In this document: one piece after another, positions 24,225 through 36,329 of the stretch
How positions within the stretch are numbered: the stretch's first letter is position 1
Layout: each line of letters opens with the position of its first letter
Assembly: GCA_039803205.1 (NCBI GenBank)
Contig: JBDRYB010000003.1
Location: 32,001 to 96,000 of the forward strand
Length of the DNA: 64,000 bases
Reading direction: 5' to 3'
DNA from: a candidate division WOR-3 bacterium
GTDB lineage: Bacteria > Hydrothermota > Hydrothermia > JBDRYB01
The notes under the pieces: generated by a model
What the model saw: the letters and a program-made list of their open reading frames with translations, nothing else
What the model was told of the DNA's origin: nothing
Databases searched by the model: none
Program-made: the position numbers and the translations under genes

Positions 24225-25811
24225 CTATTCTCCGAAGGCTCTCTTTCTAAGTCTTCTGTAGTATTGCCTGTATTCATCAATGTAACGGTCATAAGGAAAT
24301 TCAGGCAAGAGATCGTCCACTGCTAGCTCCCGGGCCTTTGCCAGAAGCGATTCTTTTTCATCCTGCTCATGGGACGATTCGGATCTGACAACCAAGTTTT
24401 CCAGCTCGGAAAGGTCTGTCCAGACATCGCCCTCAAGCTGGTAAAAATCGTGCTTGTGCACAATGAGAACATTTCTATCAAGGACCCTCCTGGCAAAGGA
24501 TACTGCCTGATAAAGCAGTTCCCGGTTCTTCCTGTCATATCTCTTTCTAGGCCAGAGGAGGTAGAAGAGATGATCCGCAGCTATCCTGTGTTTTGAGGAC
24601 AGCAGGAGATAAATAAGAAACAAGGCTGATTTTCTGCTTCGCCATTCCAGAGGTTTTATTTCTTTCCCCTCCACATATATTCTTAGCTTTCCAATGAGAT
24701 AAGCCCTGATGCCCTTGTCTTTGTAGCTCTCTGATATTCCCGTCACCATAGGTTCCACCCTCAAGATGAACTCTCCGAGAATGGGGTCCTTTTTGGAATT
24801 AGGATATAGGGGGATGAGGTGGCCTATGAGTTTCAAAGATTTGGTAAAGACAGGGCTATCAGTTTCCCAGGCCAAATAGGCGGCAGTAAGGCCCGAGAAA
24901 AAGGCTTCTGTGTTCTGATAAGCCTTAATATAATTGTTCGTGGCCTCCAAAAGACCTTCTGCGGTTTCCAGATCACTTTCCTTAAGAAGTGCTTCGGCCT
25001 CTTGGGCCGCGGCTTGTTCAGCCCAGGCTCCCTTTCTTGCGAGTTTTATTGCTTTCCTTATGAGCGCTTTGGGCGGCGGCTCAAGTCCTGTAAGCCGAGA
25101 GATCTCAAGGGCCTTGGCCAGAGGGACAATTGCATAGACCGAACCAAAACTCAGATGCCCCTCAGCGGATTTCATAAAATAAACTATACTCTCGCGAAGC
25201 TCTCCTGCTATTCTCAAACAGATGGCTTTAATTTCCTCCAGGACGCAATAAAAGATGCCCTTCTTTTCACTTCTCATAAGCGCATCGGTCATCCTAATGG
25301 CTTTATGTGGGTTTCCGAAAAATAACTCATATATTATCAGATAATATTGAGCGGTTACGAGACGAATATCTCTGAGTTTCCCTTTGGATTTGATGCGGGA
25401 CACCTCACTAAAACAATCGCGGTATTTGCCTTTCATAAAAAGGATGTGGCAAAAAGCAAGAGAAATTGCGTCTTGTGAATCTTCATCACCCAGCTCTTGG
25501 GCGATATCTAGCGCTCTAAGATAATACCTTTCAGATAATTCCAGTTCTCCCAAATCTACATACGCGTTGCCCATCAACCTCAAAAGGTAAAGAGTTGAAG
25601 CAGGATCATCACTGAGACGACTGAGAAGCTGTTGACCCTTCTTGATGGTCTGAGTAAACATATTTTTGTTGATACATATCCCCACATTAGCCAAGGCAAA
25701 TGCTAAGGGATCATCCCTTTTGAGCCGCTCTAAATAGGCAACAAGCTTGTAGCTCATGCCTTCTAGCATGAACATCATGACAGCCTTCTTGGCCTTCTCG
25801 GCTCTGGTCAT
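24225..25811 (-). CDS. TPR-containing transcriptional regulator with C-terminal SARP-type winged-helix and partial BTAD domain
   Basis: TPR-like helices; C-terminal AYLIGKLRIYVEG...WRSRKS...IYLLL...LLWP...LYQAVSFARRVL...YQL...VWTDL...LLPEFPYD pattern of SARP/AfsR-like activators; visibly AT-rich. Confidence 0.72.
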   Translation of the reverse strand: MTRAEKAKKAVMMFMLEGMSYKLVAYLERLKRDDPLAFALANVGICINKNMFTQTIKKGQQLLSRLSDDPASTLYLLRLMGNAYVDLGELELSERYYLRALDIAQELGDEDSQDAISLAFCHILFMKGKYRDCFSEVSRIKSKGKLRDIRLVTAQYYLIIYELFFGNPHKAIRMTDALMRSEKKGIFYCVLEEIKAICLRIAGELRESIVYFMKSAEGHLSFGSVYAIVPLAKALEISRLTGLEPPPKALIRKAIKLARKGAWAEQAAAQEAEALLKESDLETAEGLLEATNNYIKAYQNTEAFFSGLTAAYLAWETDSPVFTKSLKLIGHLIPLYPNSKKDPILGEFILRVEPMVTGISESYKDKGIRAYLIGKLRIYVEGKEIKPLEWRSRKSALFLIYLLLSSKHRIAADHLFYLLWPRKRYDRKNRELLYQAVSFARRVLDRNVLIVHKHDFYQLEGDVWTDLSELENLVVRSESSHEQDEKESLLAKARELAVDDLLPEFPYDRYIDEYRQYYRRLRKRAFGE

Positions 25812-25896: not shown

Positions 25897-25970
25897 CACA
25901 AGGAACGCACCGGTTCTGTTTCAGCTCTGTTTCAGTTGATTCCGTAAATATAGGCCCGTATGCACGGAGG
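25897..25970 (+). promoter_or_regulatory. Left copy of duplicated promoter with GTTTCAG-N4-GTTTCAG direct repeats and GGAGG RBS
   Basis: CACAAGGAACGCACCGGTTCTGTTTCAGCTCTGTTTCAGTTGATTCCGTAAATATAGGCCCGTATGCACGGAGG, near-identical to the reverse complement of 37952-38026. Confidence 0.75.
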
Positions 25971-25979
25971 CATAGAATA

Positions 25980-26187
25980 ATGCAGATAACCTTGTTGGCA
26001 GCTCCTCAGACATGGAACGGTTGATATGGCTCCAAACAAACATGTATGCCTCCACTGCCCCAAACGGAGCAATGGTAGGCTTGTTCACCCCTGCAATCTC
26101 GCGGCAAGCGAGAACGGGATAAGCTTTGACTCTGGCGTCTATCTCTGGCACGCAGGGCCATATAAAGGAAAGGCAGTAGTGAGATGA
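25980..26187 (+). pseudogene. Collapsed remnant of secreted cargo genes (N-terminal stub plus orphan C-terminal domain)
   Basis: 25980-26024 encodes MQITLLAAPQTWNG*, resembling the start of 36347-37945 (MIKIILLIAQTWAPG); 26026-26187 ends in SNGRLV...FDSGVYLWHAGPYKGKAVVR*, the array's shared C-terminus. Confidence 0.75.
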
Positions 26188-26285
26188 AAACTATAGACCG
26201 GCTCCGGAACCTGCTCACCTCCTATTATGCCGGAGCCGGCCTATTTTTCTTTGAAAACGAAAACAACCTGGAGATTTTATCATGA
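26184..26285 (+). CDS. 33-aa linker ORF / hairpin element (diverged copy)
   Basis: MKTIDRLRNLLTSYYAGAGLFFFENENNLEILS*; ATGA overlap at both ends; stem CCGGCTCCGG/CCGGAGCCGG with CACCTCC in the loop. Confidence 0.55.
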   Translation: MKTIDRLRNLLTSYYAGAGLFFFENENNLEILS

Positions 26286-27820
26286 ACAACTTGCTGTTAG
26301 CTGTCATGGTTTCGCAGAACCTCTTCGCGAAGACCTATGGAGGGACGGGTAAGGAGTATGCCTATTCGGTAGCCAGGACCTCGGATGGCGGATATATAGT
26401 CGCTGGGGGCACGGCCAGCTACGGTGCTGGACAGGATGACTTCCTGGTCATCAAGATCTCGCCCACAGGAACCCCTGAATGGACAAGGACCTTCGGGGGA
26501 ACAAATATGGATGCCGCCTATTCCATAATCCAGACAACCGATGGGGGATATATGGTTGCTGGGGAAACCCGCAGTTTCGTGGCGGGAACCGCTGCTAACA
26601 TTGATTTTCTTGCGCTGAAGATCTCATCCACCGGAAACCCTGAGTGGGCAAGGACCTTTGGAGGAGCAAATGAGGATTTCTGTCGATCCATAATCCAGAC
26701 ATCAGATGGGGGATACGCACTTGTAGGGTTCACCAGAAGCTATGGTGTTGGGCTGGATGACTTTTTGATCATCAAAATCTCGTCTGCTGGGGCCCTTGAA
26801 TGGGCAAAGACATTCGGCGGAACGAATTATGATAATGCCTTCTCCATAGTACAGACCATAGACGGTGGTTATGTCGTTTCGGGTAGCACCATGAGCTTCG
26901 GGGCCGGCTACTGGGACCTTCTCTTGCTAAAGCTGTCGCCCACGGGAACCCTTGAGTGGGCGAGAACCTACGGGGGAGAAAATAATGACTTTACTACCTT
27001 ACCCGTGATACATACCGCTGACAGTGGTTTCATGTTCACGGGGCACACGGAGAGCTTTGGGGCCGGTGAAGCGGATCTGCTTGTCATGGAACTTTCGTCC
27101 ACCGGGGCTCCGGAGTGGACAAGAACCTTCGGAGGAACCGACTTGGATTGCGCTCGCTCTATAACCAGAACCGGGGATGGAGGGTTCGCGCTCGCAGGAT
27201 GGACATTGAGTTTTGGGGCTGGTTCTTGTGATTTCTTCATGATAAAGATTTCGTCCGCAGGAAGCCTTGAATGGGCAAGGACTTTCGGAGGGGAAGGTTG
27301 GGACGATCCCTTCTCTATGATCCAGACTCAGGATGGCGCCTACACGGTTGCAGGATGGACAACGGGCAGTTTTGATGGAAGTGACCCTGGCGATTTCCTT
27401 GTGATCAGGCTTGACCAGAACGGCAATTACCTGGATTGCATTCAGAGCTGTTCTCCTACCACAGGGCCAGCTTCCATTTCAATATCATCCCCTGGCGCGG
27501 ACCTTATTCCCTGTAATCCTTCTATAACCAACCCGAATCCAAGCGTCACGACTCCCGGACTTCAGGTATATGATGTCTGTCCACCCAGTTCTATTGAGGA
27601 GCCAGACAAAGTCCAAACATGGCCCCAGATCATTTGCGTATCTGATATAAGAGGGGTTATTTTCCATGCTTCCGGGGAAATGGAGATAAAGATCTACTCA
27701 TCCGATGGAAGGCTGTTCTGCTCCGAACAACTGCAGAGGGGACAGACCTCCATTCCTCTTGGCCAAGGAGTCTATCTCTGGCAAGCAGGACCCTATAAAG
27801 GAAAGGCTGTTGTAAGATGA
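26282..27820 (+). CDS. Secreted beta-propeller protein with conserved C-terminal domain
   Basis: Repeats of W.RTFGG...D...SI.QT.DGGY...G.T.S.G...DFL; Ser/Pro/Thr linker; ends GVYLWQAGPYKGKAVVR. Confidence 0.85.
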   Translation: MNNLLLAVMVSQNLFAKTYGGTGKEYAYSVARTSDGGYIVAGGTASYGAGQDDFLVIKISPTGTPEWTRTFGGTNMDAAYSIIQTTDGGYMVAGETRSFVAGTAANIDFLALKISSTGNPEWARTFGGANEDFCRSIIQTSDGGYALVGFTRSYGVGLDDFLIIKISSAGALEWAKTFGGTNYDNAFSIVQTIDGGYVVSGSTMSFGAGYWDLLLLKLSPTGTLEWARTYGGENNDFTTLPVIHTADSGFMFTGHTESFGAGEADLLVMELSSTGAPEWTRTFGGTDLDCARSITRTGDGGFALAGWTLSFGAGSCDFFMIKISSAGSLEWARTFGGEGWDDPFSMIQTQDGAYTVAGWTTGSFDGSDPGDFLVIRLDQNGNYLDCIQSCSPTTGPASISISSPGADLIPCNPSITNPNPSVTTPGLQVYDVCPPSSIEEPDKVQTWPQIICVSDIRGVIFHASGEMEIKIYSSDGRLFCSEQLQRGQTSIPLGQGVYLWQAGPYKGKAVVR

Positions 27821-27872
27821 GATTCTCTACACCAGACCAAGAGGCGAGTAGCTTCCGGGATATGCTTTACAA

Positions 27873-29162
27873 TCATTCCCCTGGATTCAGGACGATCGTC
27901 CTCGTATCCACTATATTTCCATGAGATGAGAGGGCCAGGAAGCAAACGCCCTTACCTATGCCATCAAGGCTAATGGAGTGCCTTCCGGGTTCAAGAGACC
28001 AGGTTCTCAGTTCCCTGCCAATAGGATCATAAGCTGTCAGTTGGCCTGCCTTGGTAAGCCTGATTTCAACGGAAACAGTAGAGAGCATAACGATGCTGTT
28101 CTCCTTTGGCCCTGAACTCTCTCCAATCTCAAGGGGAGGGCATCCTCTGTGCGCGTAGTAGAGATCGCCAGACCTGTAATATGCTATCCTGGGGCAGTCA
28201 TCTGAGCCCACCTGAAGGCTCCTGTCTGTCATCCAGTAACCTGCCCATGTATTGGGGTCAGCAACCTCTATCGTCCAAGATGATCCATTCCACACAGCAT
28301 ATTTTAGCCTCTGGTTGGTCACATCGTAGTAGGCTATGTGCGGCCTGTCCTGGGAATCCAGGGCCAAAGAGGTATAACGCCCGACATCGCCCGCGGTGTC
28401 AACCGTCTGTATCTGCCAGGATGAGCCGTTCCAGTAGGCGTATTTGAGGTCCCGCTTGGCCGCTGATGAATCGTAGTAGGATATGTGGGGCCTGTCCTGG
28501 GAGTCAATAGCGATGGATGTCCAGAGGCCAACGGATCCAGCTGTGTCAACCTTCTGGGTCTGCCAGGATGAGCCATTCCAATAGGCGTATTTTAGATCAC
28601 GAGCACTGGCCCCGAAGCTGTAATAGGCTATGTGAGGCCTGTCTTGGGAATCCAGAGCCAAAGAGGTGCAAATCCCCAGTATATCTACCTGCTGTAGCAC
28701 CCATGCCGAGCCGTTCCAGTAGGCATACTGAATTATGCTGTAGCCATTATCAGAATAGGCTATGCACGGTCTATCCAGAGAATTAAGGGCCAGAGATGTC
28801 CAGAGCGTATTCCCTACGGTATCAACAGTCTGTCTCTGCCACGAGGAACCGTTCCAGTAAGCATACTTGAGATCCGAGTTCACGCCGTCTATCCAGTAGC
28901 TGTATGAGATGCACGGCCTATCCTGGGAATCCAGGTCCACAGAGACATAGCCACCAGAGGCGCTCCCTATGGTGTCAACCCTCTGCGTCTGCCACCCTGA
29001 GCCGGCCCATCTCGCGTATTTCACGCCATATGTTGTGAAATCGCAGTAGGCTATGTGCGGCCAGTCCTGAGAGTCCAGAGCCAGGGCCGCGTAGTAGCCA
29101 ACATCTCCAGGCGCGTCCACCTGGAGCCAGCTCCACTGAGCTAAAAAGAGCCATACCATCAT
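27873..29162 (-). CDS. Secreted beta-propeller repeat protein (second type) with C-terminal domain
   Basis: About six repeats of TSLALDSQDRPHIAYYD...LKYAYWNGSSWQ.QTVDT.G; start ATG 29162 after GGAGG. Confidence 0.8.
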   Translation of the reverse strand: MMVWLFLAQWSWLQVDAPGDVGYYAALALDSQDWPHIAYCDFTTYGVKYARWAGSGWQTQRVDTIGSASGGYVSVDLDSQDRPCISYSYWIDGVNSDLKYAYWNGSSWQRQTVDTVGNTLWTSLALNSLDRPCIAYSDNGYSIIQYAYWNGSAWVLQQVDILGICTSLALDSQDRPHIAYYSFGASARDLKYAYWNGSSWQTQKVDTAGSVGLWTSIAIDSQDRPHISYYDSSAAKRDLKYAYWNGSSWQIQTVDTAGDVGRYTSLALDSQDRPHIAYYDVTNQRLKYAVWNGSSWTIEVADPNTWAGYWMTDRSLQVGSDDCPRIAYYRSGDLYYAHRGCPPLEIGESSGPKENSIVMLSTVSVEIRLTKAGQLTAYDPIGRELRTWSLEPGRHSISLDGIGKGVCFLALSSHGNIVDTRTIVLNPGE

Positions 29163-29163
29163 C

Positions 29164-29358
29164 TTAAAAACCTCCTCGTTTAAGGTTTTTGTTTTCAAGG
29201 GAAACACGGGCTGACCGGAGGTCGTTCTGAAGAACGAGCCGTTCCGGCCGATACCCCTGTATTTTCTCGCACAGGGTCGCGGCAAACACGATCATTCCCA
29301 GCATAATCCCAGTATGAATTATCACGAATGGGTTTGCGAGCCTTTCCCTTATATTCAT
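29164..29358 (-). CDS. Extended (64-aa) linker ORF
   Basis: Starts by ATGA overlap with the upstream stop, carries the LENKN / TTGAAAACAAAAAC motif and a GC-rich hairpin with ACCTCC, stops 1 nt before the next ATG. Confidence 0.5.
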   Translation of the reverse strand: MNIRERLANPFVIIHTGIMLGMIVFAATLCEKIQGYRPERLVLQNDLRSARVSLENKNLKRGGF

Positions 29359-30881
29359 CTCACAACCGCCTTTCCTTTATATGGCCCTGCCTGCCATAGA
29401 TAGACGCCAGGATCAAGGGGGATGCGGGTTTGGCCCGCGATTAGATGTGTTGAAGAGGACAGGCGGCCATCCGGAGAATATATTTTCAATTCGGCCTCAG
29501 CTGTCGCATTGAAAATGAGAGCATGGGAAACTGGAAAACAGATCACTTCTGCGTCAAACCCGGCAGTCTCATCAACGCTTTCATAGACAGGGGCACAGAT
29601 ATTGACTGATAGTGGTGTAATTGGTGGCGTCACAGAAATACCGGGGGTTCCGGTGGAGTGAGTCCATGGGGATGGGGACACGGAAAGATTTGAGGTAGCA
29701 AAAGTGGGAGTGACGAGACCCGGAGATTGATCAAGCACACACCCAGAATAGGTTCCGTCTGCGGCTGTTCTAAGCAGAAACCCATCCCTTTGGTTAAAGT
29801 CAAAGGTGGTGCCAGCGATCGCAAGACTGCCATCCGGGAGCTGGAGGACAGAAAAAGCCCTCTCCCAACCTAAGGCATTGAATGTCTTTGTCCAAAACAA
29901 ACTCCCGTCGGCTGAGCTGAACTTCATGATCTGAGCCTCGTCCCCAAACGGAGGTAGAATTTTCGTTTTGCCCACGACCACGAACCCTTCATCTGCCGTT
30001 TGGATTATGGAGTTGCCAATTTCCTGTACGCCTGTCGTTGTTTTTGCCCAGGAAAGGTTTCCAAGAGAGTTTGTCCTGATAACCATAAGTCTTGGTATAT
30101 CCGCGAGATCAGGATCCGTCGCACCGGTTATGGCAAATCCACCATCCGAGGTTGGGACTACGGATAGGCCCACATCAAATATTGAATGATTTCCGTCAAC
30201 CATACCGTAGAAGGCTTTTGCTCTTCCTACGGATCCATCGGGGTTCAATACCAGTAACAGGGTGGCATTCTCTAAGGTAAAATCAATGTATTCCCCGGTA
30301 AAAACATAGCCGTCATCGTATGTCTGGGTCATGAATACATCCTGGGCCCGTGTATTGTATGACTTAGCCCAGCTTTCGTTTCCGGCCGCGGTAAGCTTGA
30401 GAAGCAGTATATTGGAATTATCAGACCCTCCTACTGCGTATCCCCCGACCCCTGGGGTCTCAATTACGGACCTGGCTTCTTCCCAACCCGAGGTTCCAAA
30501 GGTCTTCGCCCATGAAATATTTCCATCCTGATCCAGCCTCAGTACGAGCATATCTCTTGAACCAGCGCCGAAACTCTCTGTGTAACCAGCTATAACAAAG
30601 CCTCCGTCATCTGTGCATATCACAGACCAAGCGCCGTCATTATTTGCTCCTCCGTATGCCTTGGCCCATTGGATATTTTTGCCATCCGAGGTTAACACAA
30701 CGAGTAAAGCATCCGTGCCTCCGGCACCATAACTATTCGTTGTTCCCGCCAACGCAAAACCTCCACTGCCAGGCATCCGTGCCACGGAGTAGATGTATTC
30801 ATCACCCGTTGTCCAACCATAAGTTTTAGCAAATAGCGTCAAGGCCACAAGCACATCCATCATTATAAAGAGCCCTGTCAT
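29355..30881 (-). CDS. Secreted beta-propeller protein with conserved C-terminal domain
   Basis: Same repeat type; ends GQTRIPLDPGVYLWQAGPYKGKAVVR. Confidence 0.85.
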   Translation of the reverse strand: MTGLFIMMDVLVALTLFAKTYGWTTGDEYIYSVARMPGSGGFALAGTTNSYGAGGTDALLVVLTSDGKNIQWAKAYGGANNDGAWSVICTDDGGFVIAGYTESFGAGSRDMLVLRLDQDGNISWAKTFGTSGWEEARSVIETPGVGGYAVGGSDNSNILLLKLTAAGNESWAKSYNTRAQDVFMTQTYDDGYVFTGEYIDFTLENATLLLVLNPDGSVGRAKAFYGMVDGNHSIFDVGLSVVPTSDGGFAITGATDPDLADIPRLMVIRTNSLGNLSWAKTTTGVQEIGNSIIQTADEGFVVVGKTKILPPFGDEAQIMKFSSADGSLFWTKTFNALGWERAFSVLQLPDGSLAIAGTTFDFNQRDGFLLRTAADGTYSGCVLDQSPGLVTPTFATSNLSVSPSPWTHSTGTPGISVTPPITPLSVNICAPVYESVDETAGFDAEVICFPVSHALIFNATAEAELKIYSPDGRLSSSTHLIAGQTRIPLDPGVYLWQAGPYKGKAVVR

Positions 30882-30979
30882 GTTAAAGCCTCCGTATGGT
30901 TTTTGTTTTCAAAGCAAATGCAGGCCGGCCGGGTTTTAACGGGAGGTGCAGAGATCCCCGGCCGGCCCTTTGTTTTCAT
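30878..30979 (-). CDS. 33-aa linker ORF / hairpin element
   Basis: MKTKGRPGISAPPVKTRPACICFENKNHTEALT*; ATGA overlap at both ends; 11-bp stem GGCCGGCCGGG/CCCGGCCGGCC. Confidence 0.55.
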   Translation of the reverse strand: MKTKGRPGISAPPVKTRPACICFENKNHTEALT

Positions 30980-31057
30980 CTTACCACTGCCTTTCCTTTA
31001 TATGGCCCCGCTTGCCACAGATAGACGCCGGGATCAAGGGGGATGCGGGTTTGGCCC
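30878..31057 (-). repeat. ~180-bp direct repeat unit (3' end of cargo gene plus linker), copy 1
   Basis: Near-identical to 32487-32665 and 34108-34285; the gene-end part also recurs at 29355-29436. Confidence 0.9.
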
Positions 31058-32490
31058 TTCTTGAGCTCCCCGGAGTAAGCGAGACGGCCATCGGCTCCGT
31101 ATATCCTTAAATCAATATCTTCCCATAGGCTAAAAAGAAGGCCTCCGGAAACAAGAGAACAGGTTATCCTGTCTTTCAACACTGCGGCCTCGTTTTCTCG
31201 TGCGTCAAGGGGGGCACAGAGATCTGTCACAATGAGTGTGGGCGCAGTTATTACTGGGCTTGCAGCTCCCATGGACGGGATATAATTCACTCCCACAGAA
31301 CGGGAAGAAGTGTTCGGAGACCAGGCATTGATAGAGGGCGAACAAGAGCTCACACATCCAGGATAATCCCCATTACCGTCCACCTTTAGGAGGAGAAATC
31401 CTTGATCAACATACCCCATAATAGCAAGATCCCCATCCTGGGTTGGAATTATGCAATTAGCGCCATCATCGCTTGATGTCCCAAAGGTTCTGGCTCCCAA
31501 AAGGTTTCCAGAAGCATCCAGCTTGACAACGAAGAAATCCTCACCACCTATACCAAAACTCTTCGTACCTCCAGCGATCACGAGATCGCCATCCTGAGTC
31601 TGCATTATAGATCTCCCGTCATCGTCGTTCACGCCACCTATGGTTTTGGCCCAAGAAAGAGAACCATCCGAAGCTAGTTTGAGCACGAAGAGATCATGCC
31701 CTCCAACACCGGAGCTCTGTGTATGTCCTGTGATTACAAAGCCGCCGTCAAAGGTCTGGATTATAGCTGTGGGACAACCTGGCTCTTCATCGCTTGAACC
31801 CCCAAAGGTCCTAGCCCATATGGGAGAACCATTTGAGTTCAACCTGAGTATAAGTAAATCACTGCCGCCCACGGTAAAACTTCTTGTCCATCCTGCGACC
31901 GCAAAACCGCCATCTGTTGTTTGAACTATGGAGTGGGCTATGTCTTGATTTGTTCCCCCATAGGTCCAGGCCCACATAAAGTTCCCATTCGCATCCGTCT
32001 TGAGCACAAAGAAATCGTAACTCCCAGCGCCGGAACTGGAAGTGAATCCAGCCACCACAAGACCGTTGTCCGCAGTTAAGACTGCAGAGTGAGCCTGATC
32101 ATATCCGTCTCCGCCGAAGGTCTTATACCACTGAAGGTCGCCGCTGGAATTAAACTTGGAAATAAAGAGGTTCTCATCTCCAAAGCTATATGTCTCGCCC
32201 ACGATCGCGAACCCGTTGTCACTGGTCTGAACTATGCAGTGACTGTGATCGAATCTGGTCCCTTGTATTACCTGGGCCCAAGTTATGTTTCCGGATGGGT
32301 TCATTTTGAACACTAGGCAATCCGTACCATCTCCAAGCCCAAGATCAATCGGTCTCGTAACCAAGTAGCCACCATCAGTGGTTTGGATGACAGAGCCTGC
32401 GTAGTATTCAATGCCCGTCATGTCTTCTACAGACCTAGCGAACTTACCCTGCGCCAAGAGCGCGCTTGTGGTGATAAAAAAGCATGTCAT
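30976..32490 (-). CDS. Secreted beta-propeller protein with conserved C-terminal domain
   Basis: Same repeat type; ends GQTRIPLDPGVYLWQAGPYKGKAVVR. Confidence 0.85.
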   Translation of the reverse strand: MTCFFITTSALLAQGKFARSVEDMTGIEYYAGSVIQTTDGGYLVTRPIDLGLGDGTDCLVFKMNPSGNITWAQVIQGTRFDHSHCIVQTSDNGFAIVGETYSFGDENLFISKFNSSGDLQWYKTFGGDGYDQAHSAVLTADNGLVVAGFTSSSGAGSYDFFVLKTDANGNFMWAWTYGGTNQDIAHSIVQTTDGGFAVAGWTRSFTVGGSDLLILRLNSNGSPIWARTFGGSSDEEPGCPTAIIQTFDGGFVITGHTQSSGVGGHDLFVLKLASDGSLSWAKTIGGVNDDDGRSIMQTQDGDLVIAGGTKSFGIGGEDFFVVKLDASGNLLGARTFGTSSDDGANCIIPTQDGDLAIMGYVDQGFLLLKVDGNGDYPGCVSSCSPSINAWSPNTSSRSVGVNYIPSMGAASPVITAPTLIVTDLCAPLDARENEAAVLKDRITCSLVSGGLLFSLWEDIDLRIYGADGRLAYSGELKKGQTRIPLDPGVYLWQAGPYKGKAVVR

Positions 32491-32588
32491 GATGAAACCT
32501 CCGTATGGTTTTTGTTTTCAAGGCAAATGTGGGCCGGCCGGGTTTTAACGGGAGGTGCAGAGATTCCCGACCGGCCCTTGGTTTTCAT
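32487..32588 (-). CDS. 33-aa linker ORF / hairpin element
   Basis: MKTKGRSGISAPPVKTRPAHICLENKNHTEVSS*; ATGA overlap at both ends; stem carries a C>T change that keeps a G-U pair. Confidence 0.55.
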   Translation of the reverse strand: MKTKGRSGISAPPVKTRPAHICLENKNHTEVSS

Positions 32589-32665
32589 CTCACAACCGCC
32601 TTTCCTTTATATGGCCCTGCCTGCCATAGATAGACGCCAGAATCAAGGGGGATGCGGGTCTGACC
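32487..32665 (-). repeat. ~180-bp direct repeat unit, copy 2
   Basis: Direct comparison with 30878-31057 and 34108-34285. Confidence 0.9.
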
Positions 32666-34111
32666 TTTTTCCAGGTTATCTGAGATGGCCACGCGGCCAT
32701 CGGCCGAGTAGAGCTTTATGGGCAGGGCCTCGTTGGATACGAAGAGAACACCACCGGTGACCGGCGAACAGGTTATCCAGCCATGAGAGCCAGGATTGAT
32801 CTCCTCAACATGCTCGTAAAGGGGCTGGCAGACATCGGTTACTGTCGGCGCGGAAGCCGTAGTGATGAAATCCAGGTTTGTGGTGGTATGAGTCCAAGCG
32901 GGAGCAGAGATACTGAGATCTGGCGTCAGAAAATCGGGGGTCCCCAGGGGCGGCACCTGATCAACTACACAGTCGGAATAATCCCCGTTTCCGTCCATCT
33001 TCAGAAAAGCAATATCATGCTCTCCGACGGGAATGTTGAATGTGTTTCCCGCGACCGCGAACCCCCCGTCCGGTGTCAGAATTATGGACTGGGCGTGGTC
33101 ATCAACAGTCGCGTTGAAAGTCCTGGACCACAGGACGCCACCGGTTACATTGTCCATTTTCATGATCAGGAAATCATTGTTCATGGTTCTTGTGTGCCCT
33201 GCGGCCACGAGTCCCCCGTCCGAGGTCTGGACTATGGATGTGGCGTAATCGTGTATGCCTGTCGCTACCGTTGCCCAGGAGAGATCACCGTCGGAATCTG
33301 TTTTCATGACCATAAACATCGGCAGATCCCCCACGAAATTGCCTACTTCCGTTATGCCAGCGACCGTAAAACCCCCATCAGAGGTCTGGATTATGAAGTT
33401 GCCCTGATCAGCCCAGGTGTGAAGTCCGCCAACCATCCCAAAAAAGAACCTCGTCCAGAGGACAGACCCATCCGGATTCAGCCTAAGGATAGGGATGGCA
33501 TTATCGCTGTATATCGCGTCTTCATAGATCACCCCCGTGATAGCATATCCGCCATCGCTTGTTTGAACTATGGAATAGGCCTCTCCTAACCATCCCGGCC
33601 CATAATAATATCTTGCCCAGTTCGTATTTCCATCAGCGTCAAGCCTGAGGGCAATCAGGTTATTACCCCATGCCCCTATGGCATAGCCTCCGTCCGTGGT
33701 TCTGATTATGGAGCGCCCCTCCTCGTAGGTCGCTCCTGCTCCATAGGTCTTTGCCCAGGATAGGTCTCCGTCAGGTTCCAGCTTGAGAACCAATATGTTC
33801 CTTCTTGGGCCAGCATAACGCGTGGTGCCTCCGGTGACGACAAACCCGCCATCTGTCGCCTGGACTATGGAATATCCCACATCAACGCTTGTGTCGCCGT
33901 ATGCCTTGGCCCACACGAGGTTCCCGTTCGGATCCAGCCTGATGACCAAGACATCATCTCCACCAGCGCCAAACGCCTGCGTGGTTCCGGCGAGCGCGAA
34001 CCCGCCGTCCGTGGTCTGGACCACGGAGTAGATGTAGTCATCGCCTGTCCATCCATAGGTCTTCGCGAAAAGGTTCTGCGAGACCAGCACAGATACTATT
34101 AAGGTGTTCAT
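32585..34111 (-). CDS. Secreted beta-propeller protein with conserved C-terminal domain
   Basis: Same repeat type, closest to 29355-30881 (FAKTYGWT, GMV.G.H); ends GQTRIPLDSGVYLWQAGPYKGKAVVR. Confidence 0.85.
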   Translation of the reverse strand: MNTLIVSVLVSQNLFAKTYGWTGDDYIYSVVQTTDGGFALAGTTQAFGAGGDDVLVIRLDPNGNLVWAKAYGDTSVDVGYSIVQATDGGFVVTGGTTRYAGPRRNILVLKLEPDGDLSWAKTYGAGATYEEGRSIIRTTDGGYAIGAWGNNLIALRLDADGNTNWARYYYGPGWLGEAYSIVQTSDGGYAITGVIYEDAIYSDNAIPILRLNPDGSVLWTRFFFGMVGGLHTWADQGNFIIQTSDGGFTVAGITEVGNFVGDLPMFMVMKTDSDGDLSWATVATGIHDYATSIVQTSDGGLVAAGHTRTMNNDFLIMKMDNVTGGVLWSRTFNATVDDHAQSIILTPDGGFAVAGNTFNIPVGEHDIAFLKMDGNGDYSDCVVDQVPPLGTPDFLTPDLSISAPAWTHTTTNLDFITTASAPTVTDVCQPLYEHVEEINPGSHGWITCSPVTGGVLFVSNEALPIKLYSADGRVAISDNLEKGQTRIPLDSGVYLWQAGPYKGKAVVR

Positions 34112-34209
34112 GTTAAAGCCTCCGTATGGTTTTTGTTTTCAAACAAAATGCAGGCCGGCCGGGTTTTAACGGGAGGTGCAGAGATCCCCGGCCGGCCCTT
34201 TGTTTTCAT
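34108..34209 (-). CDS. 33-aa linker ORF / hairpin element
   Basis: MKTKGRPGISAPPVKTRPACILFENKNHTEALT*; ATGA overlap at both ends. Confidence 0.55.
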   Translation of the reverse strand: MKTKGRPGISAPPVKTRPACILFENKNHTEALT

Positions 34210-34285
34210 CTCACAACCGCCTTTCCTTTATATGGTCCCGCTTGCCAGAGATAGACGCCAGGATCAAGGGGGATGCGGGTTTGGC
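34108..34285 (-). repeat. ~180-bp direct repeat unit, copy 3
   Basis: Direct comparison with the other two copies. Confidence 0.9.
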
Positions 34286-36329
34286 TAGGTCCTAGGAGTC
34301 CGGAGAAAAATAACCTGCCATCAGGGAGATATAGTCTAAGGAGGCTCTCTTTTTCGGAGGCAAAGATTAGCCCACCGGATACAGGAATACAAGTTATCCC
34401 TCCGGGGTGGTTATACGGATCATCTTGATAGTAATCCATCGGGGAGCATATACTTAAGGTGCTTAGACTAACAGAAGTCATAGAGGGTGCTATCGTGACG
34501 ACATATGGTGTGTATGACTTTCCTGTGTTAACATTCTCATCTACGACAGGTATATTTGTGAGGGTAGCCTGTTGCCAGTCCATAATACAGCCCGCGTAAT
34601 CCTGACTCGCATTTACCTTTAGTACGAGCAGGTCGTAGCTAGAGGCATAGCTATTAGAGTATCCCAGAACAGCAAATCCTCCGTCGTCGGTTATAGATAT
34701 ACTCAAGGATATGTCCGAGTTTGCCCCACCAAGCTTTTTGACCCATAGGAGGTTGCCGCCGCCGTCGATCTTAATTATGAAGATGTCATCGCTAAGACCC
34801 GAGAAAGAGCCAGTTACTATAAGATTGTCACCGTCTACACTAGTAGACCCATACACATTGGTAGCAGAGAGATATTTTGCCCAGATGGGGTCACCCACGG
34901 CATTCGTTCTAAGTATAACCACATAAGGGCTTCCGGTATTCATCTCGCCGGTAAATATGTATCCCCCATCCGGCATCTGAGCTATATCCACCACGCCCTC
35001 TTGGTATGAGCCAAAATCATAAGTTTTTATCCATTCGGTAGCGCCAGATGAGCTAAGCTTAACCACGAAGAAGTTCCAGGGGTTCGAACCGAAATATCTC
35101 GTATATCCTCCGAGGATATAACCCCCGTCGCTTGTTTGCCTTATTCTCCATAGTCCATCGTGATTGCTTGATCCGAAGGCCCGAGCCCATTCTATATTGC
35201 TGTTTTGATCCGGCTTGTAGATAGCTCCATCCCAGCATCCGTAGCCCCAATCATCGGACCACACAGAACCGCCATCGCTGGTAAGGATAAGCGAGTTGCC
35301 GTTGCTTCCGCCCGTTGGCCCGAATACCTTTTTGCTCCATATGTGGTTCCCGGAAAGATCGTAACGGAAAAGCCAAGCATCCCATGTGCTCGTTGAAGTG
35401 TTCCAGAGATAACCGGCCGCTGTAAGATTTCCGTCAGAGGTTTGCACGATCCCCCTCACATAGTCCGCGCCAGCCGCGCCAAGAACCCTTGTCCAGATTT
35501 GATTTCCTGAGGCGTCAAACCTGGAGATCATTGCGTCGCCGTTTCCGACGCCCCAGCTATCGGTTCTGCATCCTACCACAAAGCCATCGTCTGATGTCCG
35601 AGTTACATTTGGAAAGATGTAGTCATCGTTTGGGCCCCCTATTGTTCTGTTCCAGAGCAGATTACCAGATTTGTCAAACCTGCAGATGAGGGTTTCCCAG
35701 CCTCCCGCACCTACTCCGGTTATACTACCGACAGCAACTACCCCGCTATCGGGTGTTGCTGCTATTCCGCGTCCTTCAGCTGCTTGGCCCGATAGGCCTA
35801 TACATCTCGTCCATTGATGGTTCCCTGCCGAGTCAAGCTTTACAACTATAAGGCTACTGAAGGTACTGGGACCAAAGCTCCACGAGCTCCCGACTATAGC
35901 AAAGCCATTATCGGCGGTTTTGATAATGCCACCCGCTTCATCAGCGTTAGTGCCTCCAATTGTTTTTGCCCAAAGAAGATTCCCGTTGGGATCAAGCTTG
36001 GCTATCAGAATATCGCGGTTGCCAGCACCCCATAAGGATGTGTAAGCGGTCACCGCAAAGCCGCCATCGGATGCTAGGGTCATGTATGAGCCCCAATCAT
36101 TTGGGCCACCCTCTATCATCCTGCTCCAAATATGATTTCCCAGGCTGTCAAACCTAGAGACTATGGAGCCATAGCCAAAGCTTATTGCGTGTCCGGATAA
36201 GGCGTAACCATTGTCAGGGGTCTGGACGACCGAGAATGCCCTATCGTAATTTGTCCCCCCGAGAACACTGATGAAGTTAACCTGTTGCGCTTGGCTTATC
36301 CCCGTAATGAACAGCATAACCTTTTTCAT
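34206..36329 (-). CDS. Long secreted beta-propeller protein with conserved C-terminal domain
   Basis: More repeats than its neighbours (707 aa); ends SQTRIPLDPGVYLWQAGPYKGKAVVR. Confidence 0.85.
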   Translation of the reverse strand: MKKVMLFITGISQAQQVNFISVLGGTNYDRAFSVVQTPDNGYALSGHAISFGYGSIVSRFDSLGNHIWSRMIEGGPNDWGSYMTLASDGGFAVTAYTSLWGAGNRDILIAKLDPNGNLLWAKTIGGTNADEAGGIIKTADNGFAIVGSSWSFGPSTFSSLIVVKLDSAGNHQWTRCIGLSGQAAEGRGIAATPDSGVVAVGSITGVGAGGWETLICRFDKSGNLLWNRTIGGPNDDYIFPNVTRTSDDGFVVGCRTDSWGVGNGDAMISRFDASGNQIWTRVLGAAGADYVRGIVQTSDGNLTAAGYLWNTSTSTWDAWLFRYDLSGNHIWSKKVFGPTGGSNGNSLILTSDGGSVWSDDWGYGCWDGAIYKPDQNSNIEWARAFGSSNHDGLWRIRQTSDGGYILGGYTRYFGSNPWNFFVVKLSSSGATEWIKTYDFGSYQEGVVDIAQMPDGGYIFTGEMNTGSPYVVILRTNAVGDPIWAKYLSATNVYGSTSVDGDNLIVTGSFSGLSDDIFIIKIDGGGNLLWVKKLGGANSDISLSISITDDGGFAVLGYSNSYASSYDLLVLKVNASQDYAGCIMDWQQATLTNIPVVDENVNTGKSYTPYVVTIAPSMTSVSLSTLSICSPMDYYQDDPYNHPGGITCIPVSGGLIFASEKESLLRLYLPDGRLFFSGLLGPSQTRIPLDPGVYLWQAGPYKGKAVVR

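Follow-up and report, generated by a model that had tools for sequence, protein, structure and literature searches.

Short open reading frames bridge a putatively terminator-derived hairpin between propeller genes of a candidate division WOR-3 bacterium

Four intergenic spacers of identical length, each open from an ATG to a TGA and each sharing 4 nt with the gene on either side, raise the question of what is conserved between the genes that they join: a peptide, a reading frame, or the nucleotides themselves. They lie in a 64,000-nt stretch of DNA (here, the window) from a candidate division WOR-3 bacterium (GTDB lineage Bacteria; Hydrothermota; Hydrothermia; JBDRYB01; NCBI GenBank assembly GCA_039803205.1, contig JBDRYB010000003.1, positions 32,001 to 96,000 of the forward strand). 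The original prediction, made from the letters alone, held that selection acts on translatability and not on peptide sequence, and that the spacer may be a reusable module that makes each gene depend on translation of the previous one. Here, we report that the conserved core of the spacer is a covarying GC hairpin with an anti-Shine-Dalgarno (anti-SD)-like loop, which the prediction had overlooked and which also occurs without any open reading frame (ORF). We lean towards reading the spacer as an intercistronic, genus-specific, terminator-derived hairpin, bridged by a relay ORF that would carry ribosomes from gene to gene.

Spacers, hairpin core, and distribution

The ORF list agrees with four spacers of exactly 102 nt from ATG to TGA. 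One is on the plus strand (26184..26285), between a relic gene tail (ORF 26026-26187) and gene 26282-27820. Three are on the minus strand, at 34108..34209 (between genes 34206-36329 and 32585-34111), 32487..32588 (between genes 32585-34111 and 30976-32490), and 30878..30979 (between genes 30976-32490 and 29355-30881). Each is a mini-ORF of 33 codons that has 4 nt (ATGA) in common with both the preceding and the following ORF. The peptides are MKTKGRPGISAPPVKTRPACICFENKNHTEALT (two close variants) and MKTIDRLRNLLTSYYAGAGLFFFENENNLEILS, and the three minus-strand copies are mutually 88 to 98% identical. A profile of the gene tail plus the spacer (nhmmer) found about 35 more sites in the same 2.3-Mb genome, which bears out a recurrence beyond chance.

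The core of the spacer is a 12-bp GC hairpin with a 21- to 28-nt loop containing (G)CACCTCC(CG), and its stem is flanked by an A-tract and a T-tract. The inverted repeat was read from aligned copies as GGGCCGGCCGGG...CCCGGCCGGCCC on the minus strand versus CCGGCTCCGG...CCGGAGCCGG in the diverged plus-strand copy; because the plus-strand arms have diverged and yet still pair, compensatory change preserves the stem. In the window, hairpin copies were placed with a covariance model (CM) at 26193..26249 (plus strand; stem CCGGCTCCGG/CCGGAGCCGG, loop ..CTCACCTCCTA..; CM R1, 52.5 bits; fold of -23.5 kcal/mol at 37°C), 30915..30970 (minus strand; stem GGCCGGCCGGG/CCCGGCCGGCC, loop ..TGCACCTCCCGTT..; 64.9 bits; -28.6 kcal/mol), 32524..32579 (minus strand; 61.8 bits), and 34145..34200 (minus strand; 67.2 bits). 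RNAalifold predicted the stem from 24 aligned copies, in which 95.1% of the cells of the 12-pair helix are paired and 10 of the 12 pairs have changes on both sides. None of 500 shuffled controls reached these values, and slid registers attained at most 53.6% pairing. G-U pairs are tolerated on the sense strand. Minimum free energy (MFE) folds contain a single hairpin with an A/U extension only, and stability ranges from -23.5 to -28.6 kcal/mol at 37°C and from -10.4 to -16.2 kcal/mol at 70°C.

CM searches returned 33 sense-strand copies and 3 weak antisense echoes in this genome, and, in the two other genomes of the genus, 13 and 8. None was found in 57 other genomes of the class, save one 30-bit match, or in the 149 other genomes sampled from the phylum (76 genera); among the genomes searched, the family was thus found only in this genus. 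Rfam gave no match at gathering score over the window and only chance-level matches (E, 1.7 to 8) within 26000-34400; the hairpin family is an undescribed RNA motif, absent from Rfam. Among the matches listed from a stem-loop-stem pattern scan of genome contigs, there were single chance matches, mostly in high-GC actinobacteria, and a weak 23-bit CM match was present at 2 of 80 loci. The runs listed as containing the sequence were five DNA sequencing runs labelled hot-springs metagenome, with no RNA run among them, and their contigs break at the repeated linkers. In one of the other genomes of the genus (G001), tandem hairpins of the family stand about 80 nt apart behind one gene (L022, 491-626; L023, 495-630; L025, 509-640; L021, 407-587), the first with a GGGCCGGCC-type stem and the second with a CCCCGGCC-type stem and a T-run.

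Nearly all copies begin 2 to 15 nt past the stop codon of a gene of about 500 aa whose tail is of either of two related types (..YKGKAVVR or ..GGTKTLKIVR). A tail hidden Markov model (HMM) built from 29 genes matched 216 ORFs of the genome (at least 120 codons; E ≤ 1e-3), a very large expansion for 2.3 Mb, and 30 of these are followed by the hairpin. The tail has no match in Pfam, and the T9SS type A sorting domain (TIGR04183) came out below threshold (E, 0.007; 16 bits versus a cutoff of 23) in 2 of 5 proteins scanned. The minus-strand spacers belong to a five-gene same-strand chain (27873..36329; genes 34206-36329, 32585-34111, 30976-32490, 29355-30881, and 27873-29162). The first four genes encode delta-60/SBBP/DUF5122-type beta-propeller proteins, all with the C-terminal end ..GVYLWQAGPYKGKAVVR, and the last (27873-29162) is BNR-like. 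On the plus strand, the gene 3' of the linker (26282..27820) is also a propeller gene. In the metagenome contigs, no relative was found with a 508-aa propeller protein as a query; a degenerate tail pattern, permitting both AGATGA-type and TAA-type stops, returned 33 loci, of which 19 have the hairpin (14 distinct). These 14 comprise 10 linkers (all ATGA), 3 terminal copies with TAA, and 1 copy behind a 71-codon ORF that ends in AGATGA.

Repeated copies with palindromic GC arms at the borders of paralogous gene cassettes could also be a DNA-level element, such as a recombination site, a mobile miniature repeat, or an uptake signal, and an 8-nt AGATGAAA duplication surrounds an extra 71-codon ORF in L180. 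Against this stand the single orientation relative to the preceding gene (antisense matches of 22 to 31 bits versus 35 to 69 bits), the G-U pairs on the sense strand, the fixed distance from the stop codon, the flanking A- and U-tracts, and the location of every copy seen at a gene end. We regard a DNA-level repeat as very improbable; it was considered and rejected, as were a functional peptide and a readthrough or selenocysteine insertion sequence (SECIS) signal.

Terminal and linker copies

Sorted by context, 55 copies from the three genomes comprise 22 linkers, in which the next same-strand gene starts 19 to 41 nt past the hairpin model match, and 33 non-linkers; over all 32 linkers, metagenome copies included, the next gene is 14 to 41 nt on. 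Terminal copies follow a TAA or TAG stop without an ATG, have an immediate T-run, and lie at convergent gene ends or before a promoter. Among the 15 non-linker copies of this genome, 7 are within 18 nt of the stop of a convergent ORF, 6 have a gene 74 to 101 nt on behind a TATAAT-like box, 1 has an SD-less gene at +40, and 1 is a decayed linker. An SD-less gene at +39/+40 behind a terminal hairpin was seen in the C5:81056 region of this genome (G000) and at L165 and L189, with a TATCATAAC-like box adjoining its ATG; because there is no SD and the box directly precedes the ATG, the mRNA behind these three hairpins may be leaderless.

The two classes also differ past the stem. Terminal copies have a mean of 6.6 T in the next 10 nt (n = 30), mostly starting at once, versus 5.3 in linkers (n = 22), where the run is often displaced (p = 0.0016); exact CACCTCC is present in 29 of 30 terminal copies versus 17 of 22 linkers. 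The A-tract after the stop (ATGAAAACAAAG, which the original prediction had read as 'MKTK') pairs with the T-rich stretch behind the stem, and ordinary terminators of this genome have the same GCCCCGGC..GCCGGGGCTTTT stem around a 3- to 6-nt loop. Because of this pairing and the shared stem, the family looks like a terminator with a 21- to 28-nt loop insert. In common with intrinsic terminators, including bidirectional ones at convergent genes, it has an A-tract, a GC-rich stem, and a U-tract directly behind it, a few bases past a stop codon. It departs from them in the large loop with conserved CACCUCC(C) in place of a loop of about 3 to 8 nt, in its restriction to one gene family and one genus, and, in linkers, in a weakened U-run and an ORF that runs through the hairpin. 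A consensus terminator scan with 3- to 8-nt loops recognised none of the family hairpins; so simple a scan passes over them because of their large loops. From these features, terminal copies probably terminate transcription.

The stop codon of the gene upstream separates the contexts. It is AGATGA in 18 of the 22 linkers, where the conserved protein tail ends in Arg and stop (AGA-TGA) and thereby supplies the ATG. Behind tail genes of the three genomes, 24 of 27 terminal copies have TAA or TAG without an ATG; the other 3 have ATGA and retain an A-rich/SD remnant of a lost downstream gene, as decayed linkers do. With the metagenome copies included, the proportion of stops overlapped by an ATG is 28 of 32 for linker hairpins, 4 of 31 for terminal hairpins, and 16 of 80 for junctions of this tail family that lack a hairpin and have a next gene nearby. 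A Fisher test of linkers against terminal copies gave P = 1.4e-9 (calculated with 4 of 32 terminal copies, a set that included L164, where the hairpin was seen by eye only), and linkers against hairpin-less junctions gave P = 3e-11; both treat kin as independent. Even among near-identical hairpins, the ATG in the stop tracks context: L021:529 has ATGA and a linker remnant, and L022:569 and L023:495 have ATAG/ATAA and are terminal.

The plus-strand propeller gene of the window itself ends in AGATGA, followed by a 35-codon ORF (27817-27924, plus strand), with no hairpin and no gene behind it (it is convergent with gene 27873-29162). Because of this gene, AGATGA alone is no mark of a linker.

The bridging frame

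Although the four window copies are 102 nt long, that length is not fixed in the family: the ORF is 27 to 42 codons long where it lands at the next start, and only 13 of 28 have 33. What is kept is the openness of the frame. In all 28 linkers with ATGA, homologous linkers from related genomes included, reading from the ATG meets no stop until it is within 12 nt of the next start; the frame of the upstream gene is equally open in 17 of them and the third frame in 10. In 18 linkers, the ORF closes on the next start itself through an ATGA, and in another 8 it stops no more than 7 nt away (offsets, -7 to +4). At hairpin-less ATGA junctions with a separate start, which served as a control, landing within 7 nt was found in only 3 of 7. 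Some hairpin-less junctions of the same gene family have ORFs of 7 to 9 codons from the ATGA stop to 1 to 5 nt from the next start (C14:45984, C1:196135, and C30:11310 in this genome, G000; L171 and L172).

The gap from stop to hairpin in linkers varies from 2 to 27 nt, the frame through stem and loop varies by copy, and the mini-ORF peptides are mutually unrelated, with conserved residues only where nucleotide motifs impose them. The MKT and FENKN ends of the original prediction are present and nucleotide driven, the former by the A-tract that pairs with the T-tract and the latter by a conserved A-rich stretch 5' of the SD. The plus-strand copy is as it had been described, with a diverged middle between kept MKT...(F/L)EN(K/E)N ends, but the length and frame shared by the window copies do not extend to the family. 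Among three tandem paralogues on one contig (L191, L192, and L193), single-nucleotide indels replace a landing on ATGA by a stop 1 nt short of the ATG; between L191 and L193, the indel is of one base and the new stop is a TGA. Translatability and not peptide thus appears to be conserved, much as had been proposed: the open frame and its landing place are kept and the peptides are free, on a hairpin core that the proposal had missed and with neither length nor frame fixed.

That the mini-ORF makes a functional peptide, or that UGA plus hairpin drives recoding (readthrough, selenocysteine insertion, or frameshifting) into extended or fused propellers, we hold to be highly improbable. The hairpin lies 5 nt past the UGA in most linkers, and the upstream frame is open past the UGA into the next gene at C5:43984 and L031. 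It is closed within the linker, however, in 11 of 28, including at +6 in the plus-strand window copy, which largely refutes recoding and does not fit a bacterial SECIS or stop-codon readthrough signal; terminal copies, moreover, stop with TAA or TAG. A functional peptide is opposed by the lack of conserved residues beyond nucleotide-forced ones and by the varying frame through the hairpin. At two of the 28 linkers (C5:43975 in this genome, G000, and L031 in another, G002), the upstream gene's own frame runs past the UGA in frame with the next gene, and readthrough would fuse two propellers.

If the frame were random, all of the first 18 copies would be open with P = 0.015 after a very conservative merging into 9 lineages; hand products gave about 1.4e-4 for those 18 taken as independent and, for the 10 copies from the metagenome, about 0.0065. 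Behind linkers, 25 of 28 starts are ATGA versus 420 of 1,546 background SD-bearing starts. Stops in both non-gene frames between -12 and +4 were found at 11 of 28 linker starts versus 145 of 1,546 SD-bearing starts (P = 3e-5, uncorrected); because both non-gene frames have nearby stops, a ribosome that arrived out of frame would be released there, whichever of the two frames it was in.

The conserved hairpin with its covariation and distribution, its two contexts, and the conserved open frame and landing place can be joined in one mechanism. At a gene that ends a transcription unit, a TAA or TAG stop and a hairpin with an immediate U-run would bring about termination. At a linker, the AGA-UGA stop would supply an overlapping AUG, at which ribosomes finishing the upstream gene would re-initiate. 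Such a ribosome would translate the 27- to 42-codon frame through the hairpin, melting the stem, then stop on or a few bases from the next AUG, usually at a second AUGA, and re-initiate there. An elongating ribosome would unwind the stem, which a scanning or re-initiating ribosome could not cross. For as long as the upstream gene is translated, translation of the mini-ORF would probably also prevent termination or attenuation of transcription at the hairpin, and a single base, AGATGA versus AGATAA, would decide between connector and terminator. We infer, accordingly with qualification, that the mini-ORF is translated, that the hairpin terminates, and that the next gene depends on the relay. 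A precedent in Escherichia coli is the tR2 position effect, a ribosome-dependent suppression of a terminator; the ribosome almost fully represses a terminator that lies a few base pairs past a translated gene (PMC4824070).

Several observations weigh against this mechanism, and some of them feed an alternative that we consider possible but doubtful, in which the ORF is a by-product. The hairpin would then be an intercistronic terminator, attenuator, or 3'-end stabiliser passed on with every gene duplication, and each next gene would use its own SD; the ATG would be an accident of AGA-TGA, the GC stem and C-rich loop would be stop free, and the AT-rich spacer and ATGA starts would provide the stops. 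A GGAG-type SD with normal spacing precedes 25 of 28 downstream genes, so the relay is not needed for their translation. The linker is stop-poor anyway, as the openness of the second frame in 17 of 28 indicates, and landing near the start is partly expected because stops are common in the AT-rich SD-to-ATG spacer and ATGA accounts for 27% of all SD-bearing starts in the genome. AGATGA is also found behind 20 of 186 hairpin-less tail genes. Copies are paralogues of common descent, as the near identity of the minus-strand window copies illustrates, so all P values overstate the case. Two of 28 bridging ORFs overshoot the next start, by 44 and 65 nt. Four linkers lack the ATG: at C16:40826, a GTG overlaps the stop and its frame continues into the next gene; C1:61156 has a TAA stop; and C4:122183 and C14:44583 have no tail gene directly upstream. 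Conversely, the four terminal hairpins with ATGA consist of the three decayed linkers and one copy behind a 71-codon ORF. The loop motif, finally, is the most conserved feature of the family, is best kept in terminal copies, and receives no role from the mechanism.

A by-product does not readily account for an ATG frame that is open in 28 of 28 linkers despite indels and differing frames through the hairpin, or for an ATG in the stop that tracks context, near-identical hairpins included. Nor does it account for the landing near a start in only 3 of 7 hairpin-less ATGA junctions, or for two linkers whose next-gene SD is not recognisable: C1:364063, where the double ATGA is kept, and L030, where the ORF ends 4 nt past the next ATG. 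We continue to lean towards the relay ORF.

The plus-strand hairpin copy is a single case of another kind, located in a 5' leader and not between two intact genes. The leader (25915..26187, plus strand; its ORF tiling was read from the sequence) holds a pair of TCTGTTTCAG boxes (25915-25935) with a separation of 11 bp; a -10-like TAAATAT (about 25945-25951) and GGAGG (25966-25970) come next. Past a 14-codon ORF (ATG, 25980-25982; TGA, 26022-24) and a gap of 1 nt lies the 53-codon remnant of the tail of a propeller gene (26026-26187), which leads through ATGA into the 33-codon linker ORF and through a second ATGA into gene 26282-27820. Three ORFs in succession, never more than 1 nt apart, thus tile the 300-nt decayed leader up to the gene, in keeping with selection for unbroken translation as far as the hairpin and over it. 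What has decayed here is a propeller gene, of which the start and tail are retained and the middle is lost. The TCTGTTTCAG boxes and the -10-like box are located between a divergent TPR regulator gene (24225-25811, minus strand) and the propeller gene.

The fifth and longer spacer also stands where the original prediction had put it (29164..29358, minus strand). This ORF of 64 codons opens within the AGATGA stop of gene 29355-30881, stays open, and reaches its TAA stop 1 nt ahead of the ATG with which gene 27873-29162 starts. A conserved hydrophobic segment (ER..P..I.HT.I..G....A) makes up its N-terminal half. The segment is shared with a 66-aa database protein (P0002; 67% identity; E, 7.6e-20) and with a 71-codon ORF that metagenome contigs have at the same junction (L180:192-404, minus strand; 35% identity; local match E, 2e-7). 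The 64-codon ORF may be a real gene for a small membrane protein that also serves as a bridge. A remodelled hairpin (-27.9 kcal/mol), to which the CM gave no match at E ≤ 0.01, and an A-rich/SD stretch are found in its 3' part (about 29181-29256). In the metagenome contig L180, the 71-codon ORF is bordered on both sides by the same 8 nt, AGATGAAA (at the end of the propeller gene and at the end of the small ORF), and looks as if it had been inserted into an ATGA junction with a short duplication.

The loop motif, known systems, and meaning

The loop keeps an exact CACCTCC in 46 of 52 copies, whereas the stems are rewritten, and this motif is the complement of the GGAGG(TG) SDs that occur throughout the genome. 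That it equals the anti-SD is judged from the universal CCUCC and the GGAGG SDs of the genome, as the 16S 3' end was not found in the assembly. Our best guess is that the motif pairs with SD sequences. The loop could be the working part, an anti-SD mimic that would repress initiation by masking the next SD in linkers or, from the 3' end in terminal copies, SDs of its own or other mRNAs; in linkers, mini-ORF translation would free the SD. We put this forward tentatively. A precedent is found in the 3' untranslated region (UTR) of icaR in Staphylococcus aureus, where a UCCCC motif pairs with the SD of that mRNA (PMC3868564), and at L032 an 11-nt match of loop to SD of the gene behind was read by eye. 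Loop and downstream SD nevertheless do not covary, and no specific partner emerged: the loop is kept with no next-gene SD at C1:364063 and L030, and GGAGG is kept with the loop motif lost at L021:2138 and L166. Extended loop-SD complementarity (GGAGGTGCA) is not enriched beyond the generic SD core, as GGAGGTG is followed by CA 43 times, mid-rank among the 16 dinucleotides, many of these being the hairpins' own antisense. Terminal copies with no downstream gene, moreover, keep the motif best.

The relay ORF and the loop could be combined in a conditional gene connector, in which the mini-ORF would tie both read-through of the hairpin and initiation of the next gene to translation of the prior gene, one base of the stop would join genes or end the unit, and the exposed loop would act as an SD mask or sponge for the gene family. 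We think this fuller version rather unlikely to hold in all its parts.

Several known systems share parts of the arrangement. In ATGA/TAATG translational coupling, starts overlap stops as they do here, where the junctions are 4-nt ATGA and the start overlaps the stop at 28 of 32 upstream and 18 of 28 downstream junctions. In pyrBI-type attenuation, the leader ORF runs through the attenuator. There, as with tR2, a translated frame lies over or just before a terminator hairpin, where a ribosome can block its folding; the frame described here is a bridge between long genes and not a 5' leader, with stop/start overlaps in and out and about 18 junctions per genome. A short ORF over a terminator hairpin is also what leader-peptide attenuators of the trp, his, and pyrBI type have, but no regulatory or sensing codons and no alternative antiterminator fold were found in the linkers, given their unrelated peptides and MFE folds. 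In the synthetic bicistronic design of Mutalik et al. (2013), a short leader ORF reportedly ends on the start of the gene of interest. As in that design, the downstream SD lies inside the short ORF, the product is irrelevant, and translation would unfold local structure; the junction described here is natural and doubly overlapped, and its mini-ORF would be entered by re-initiation, not from a promoter-proximal SD of its own, and spans a very stable conserved hairpin.

Other likenesses concern the hairpin. In small RNAs with C-rich loops, a C-rich SD-complementary motif is exposed in a 3'-proximal hairpin. The icaR 3' UTR (PMC3868564) likewise has a C-rich anti-SD motif in a 3'-proximal hairpin; it differs from the present family, for which no partner-specific complementarity or covariation was found and which has a generic anti-SD and is present in about 30 copies per genome on one gene family. 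A stable repeated hairpin between operon genes could also protect the upstream message. Such protection is the role of intercistronic stabiliser hairpins of the repetitive extragenic palindromic (REP) or malE-malF type, which are genome-wide and have no bridging ORF, conserved loop, or fixed distance from the stop. The element draws on known kinds (intrinsic terminator, stop/start coupling, and ORF-over-terminator attenuation) and joins a hairpin family absent from Rfam to a bridging ORF without a product, the latter comparatively well supported.

For annotation, the linkers are a caution that conservation of a short ORF can reflect translation only. If the relay reading is true, the linkers would be a compact natural way to keep genes coupled, in both translation and transcription, across a stable RNA structure that is needed otherwise, with a one-base switch between terminator and connector; the synthetic bicistronic junction was designed for the same purpose. 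A hairpin family with an anti-SD loop on about 30 genes of a hugely expanded secreted family points to post-transcriptional control of that family in an uncultured thermophile.

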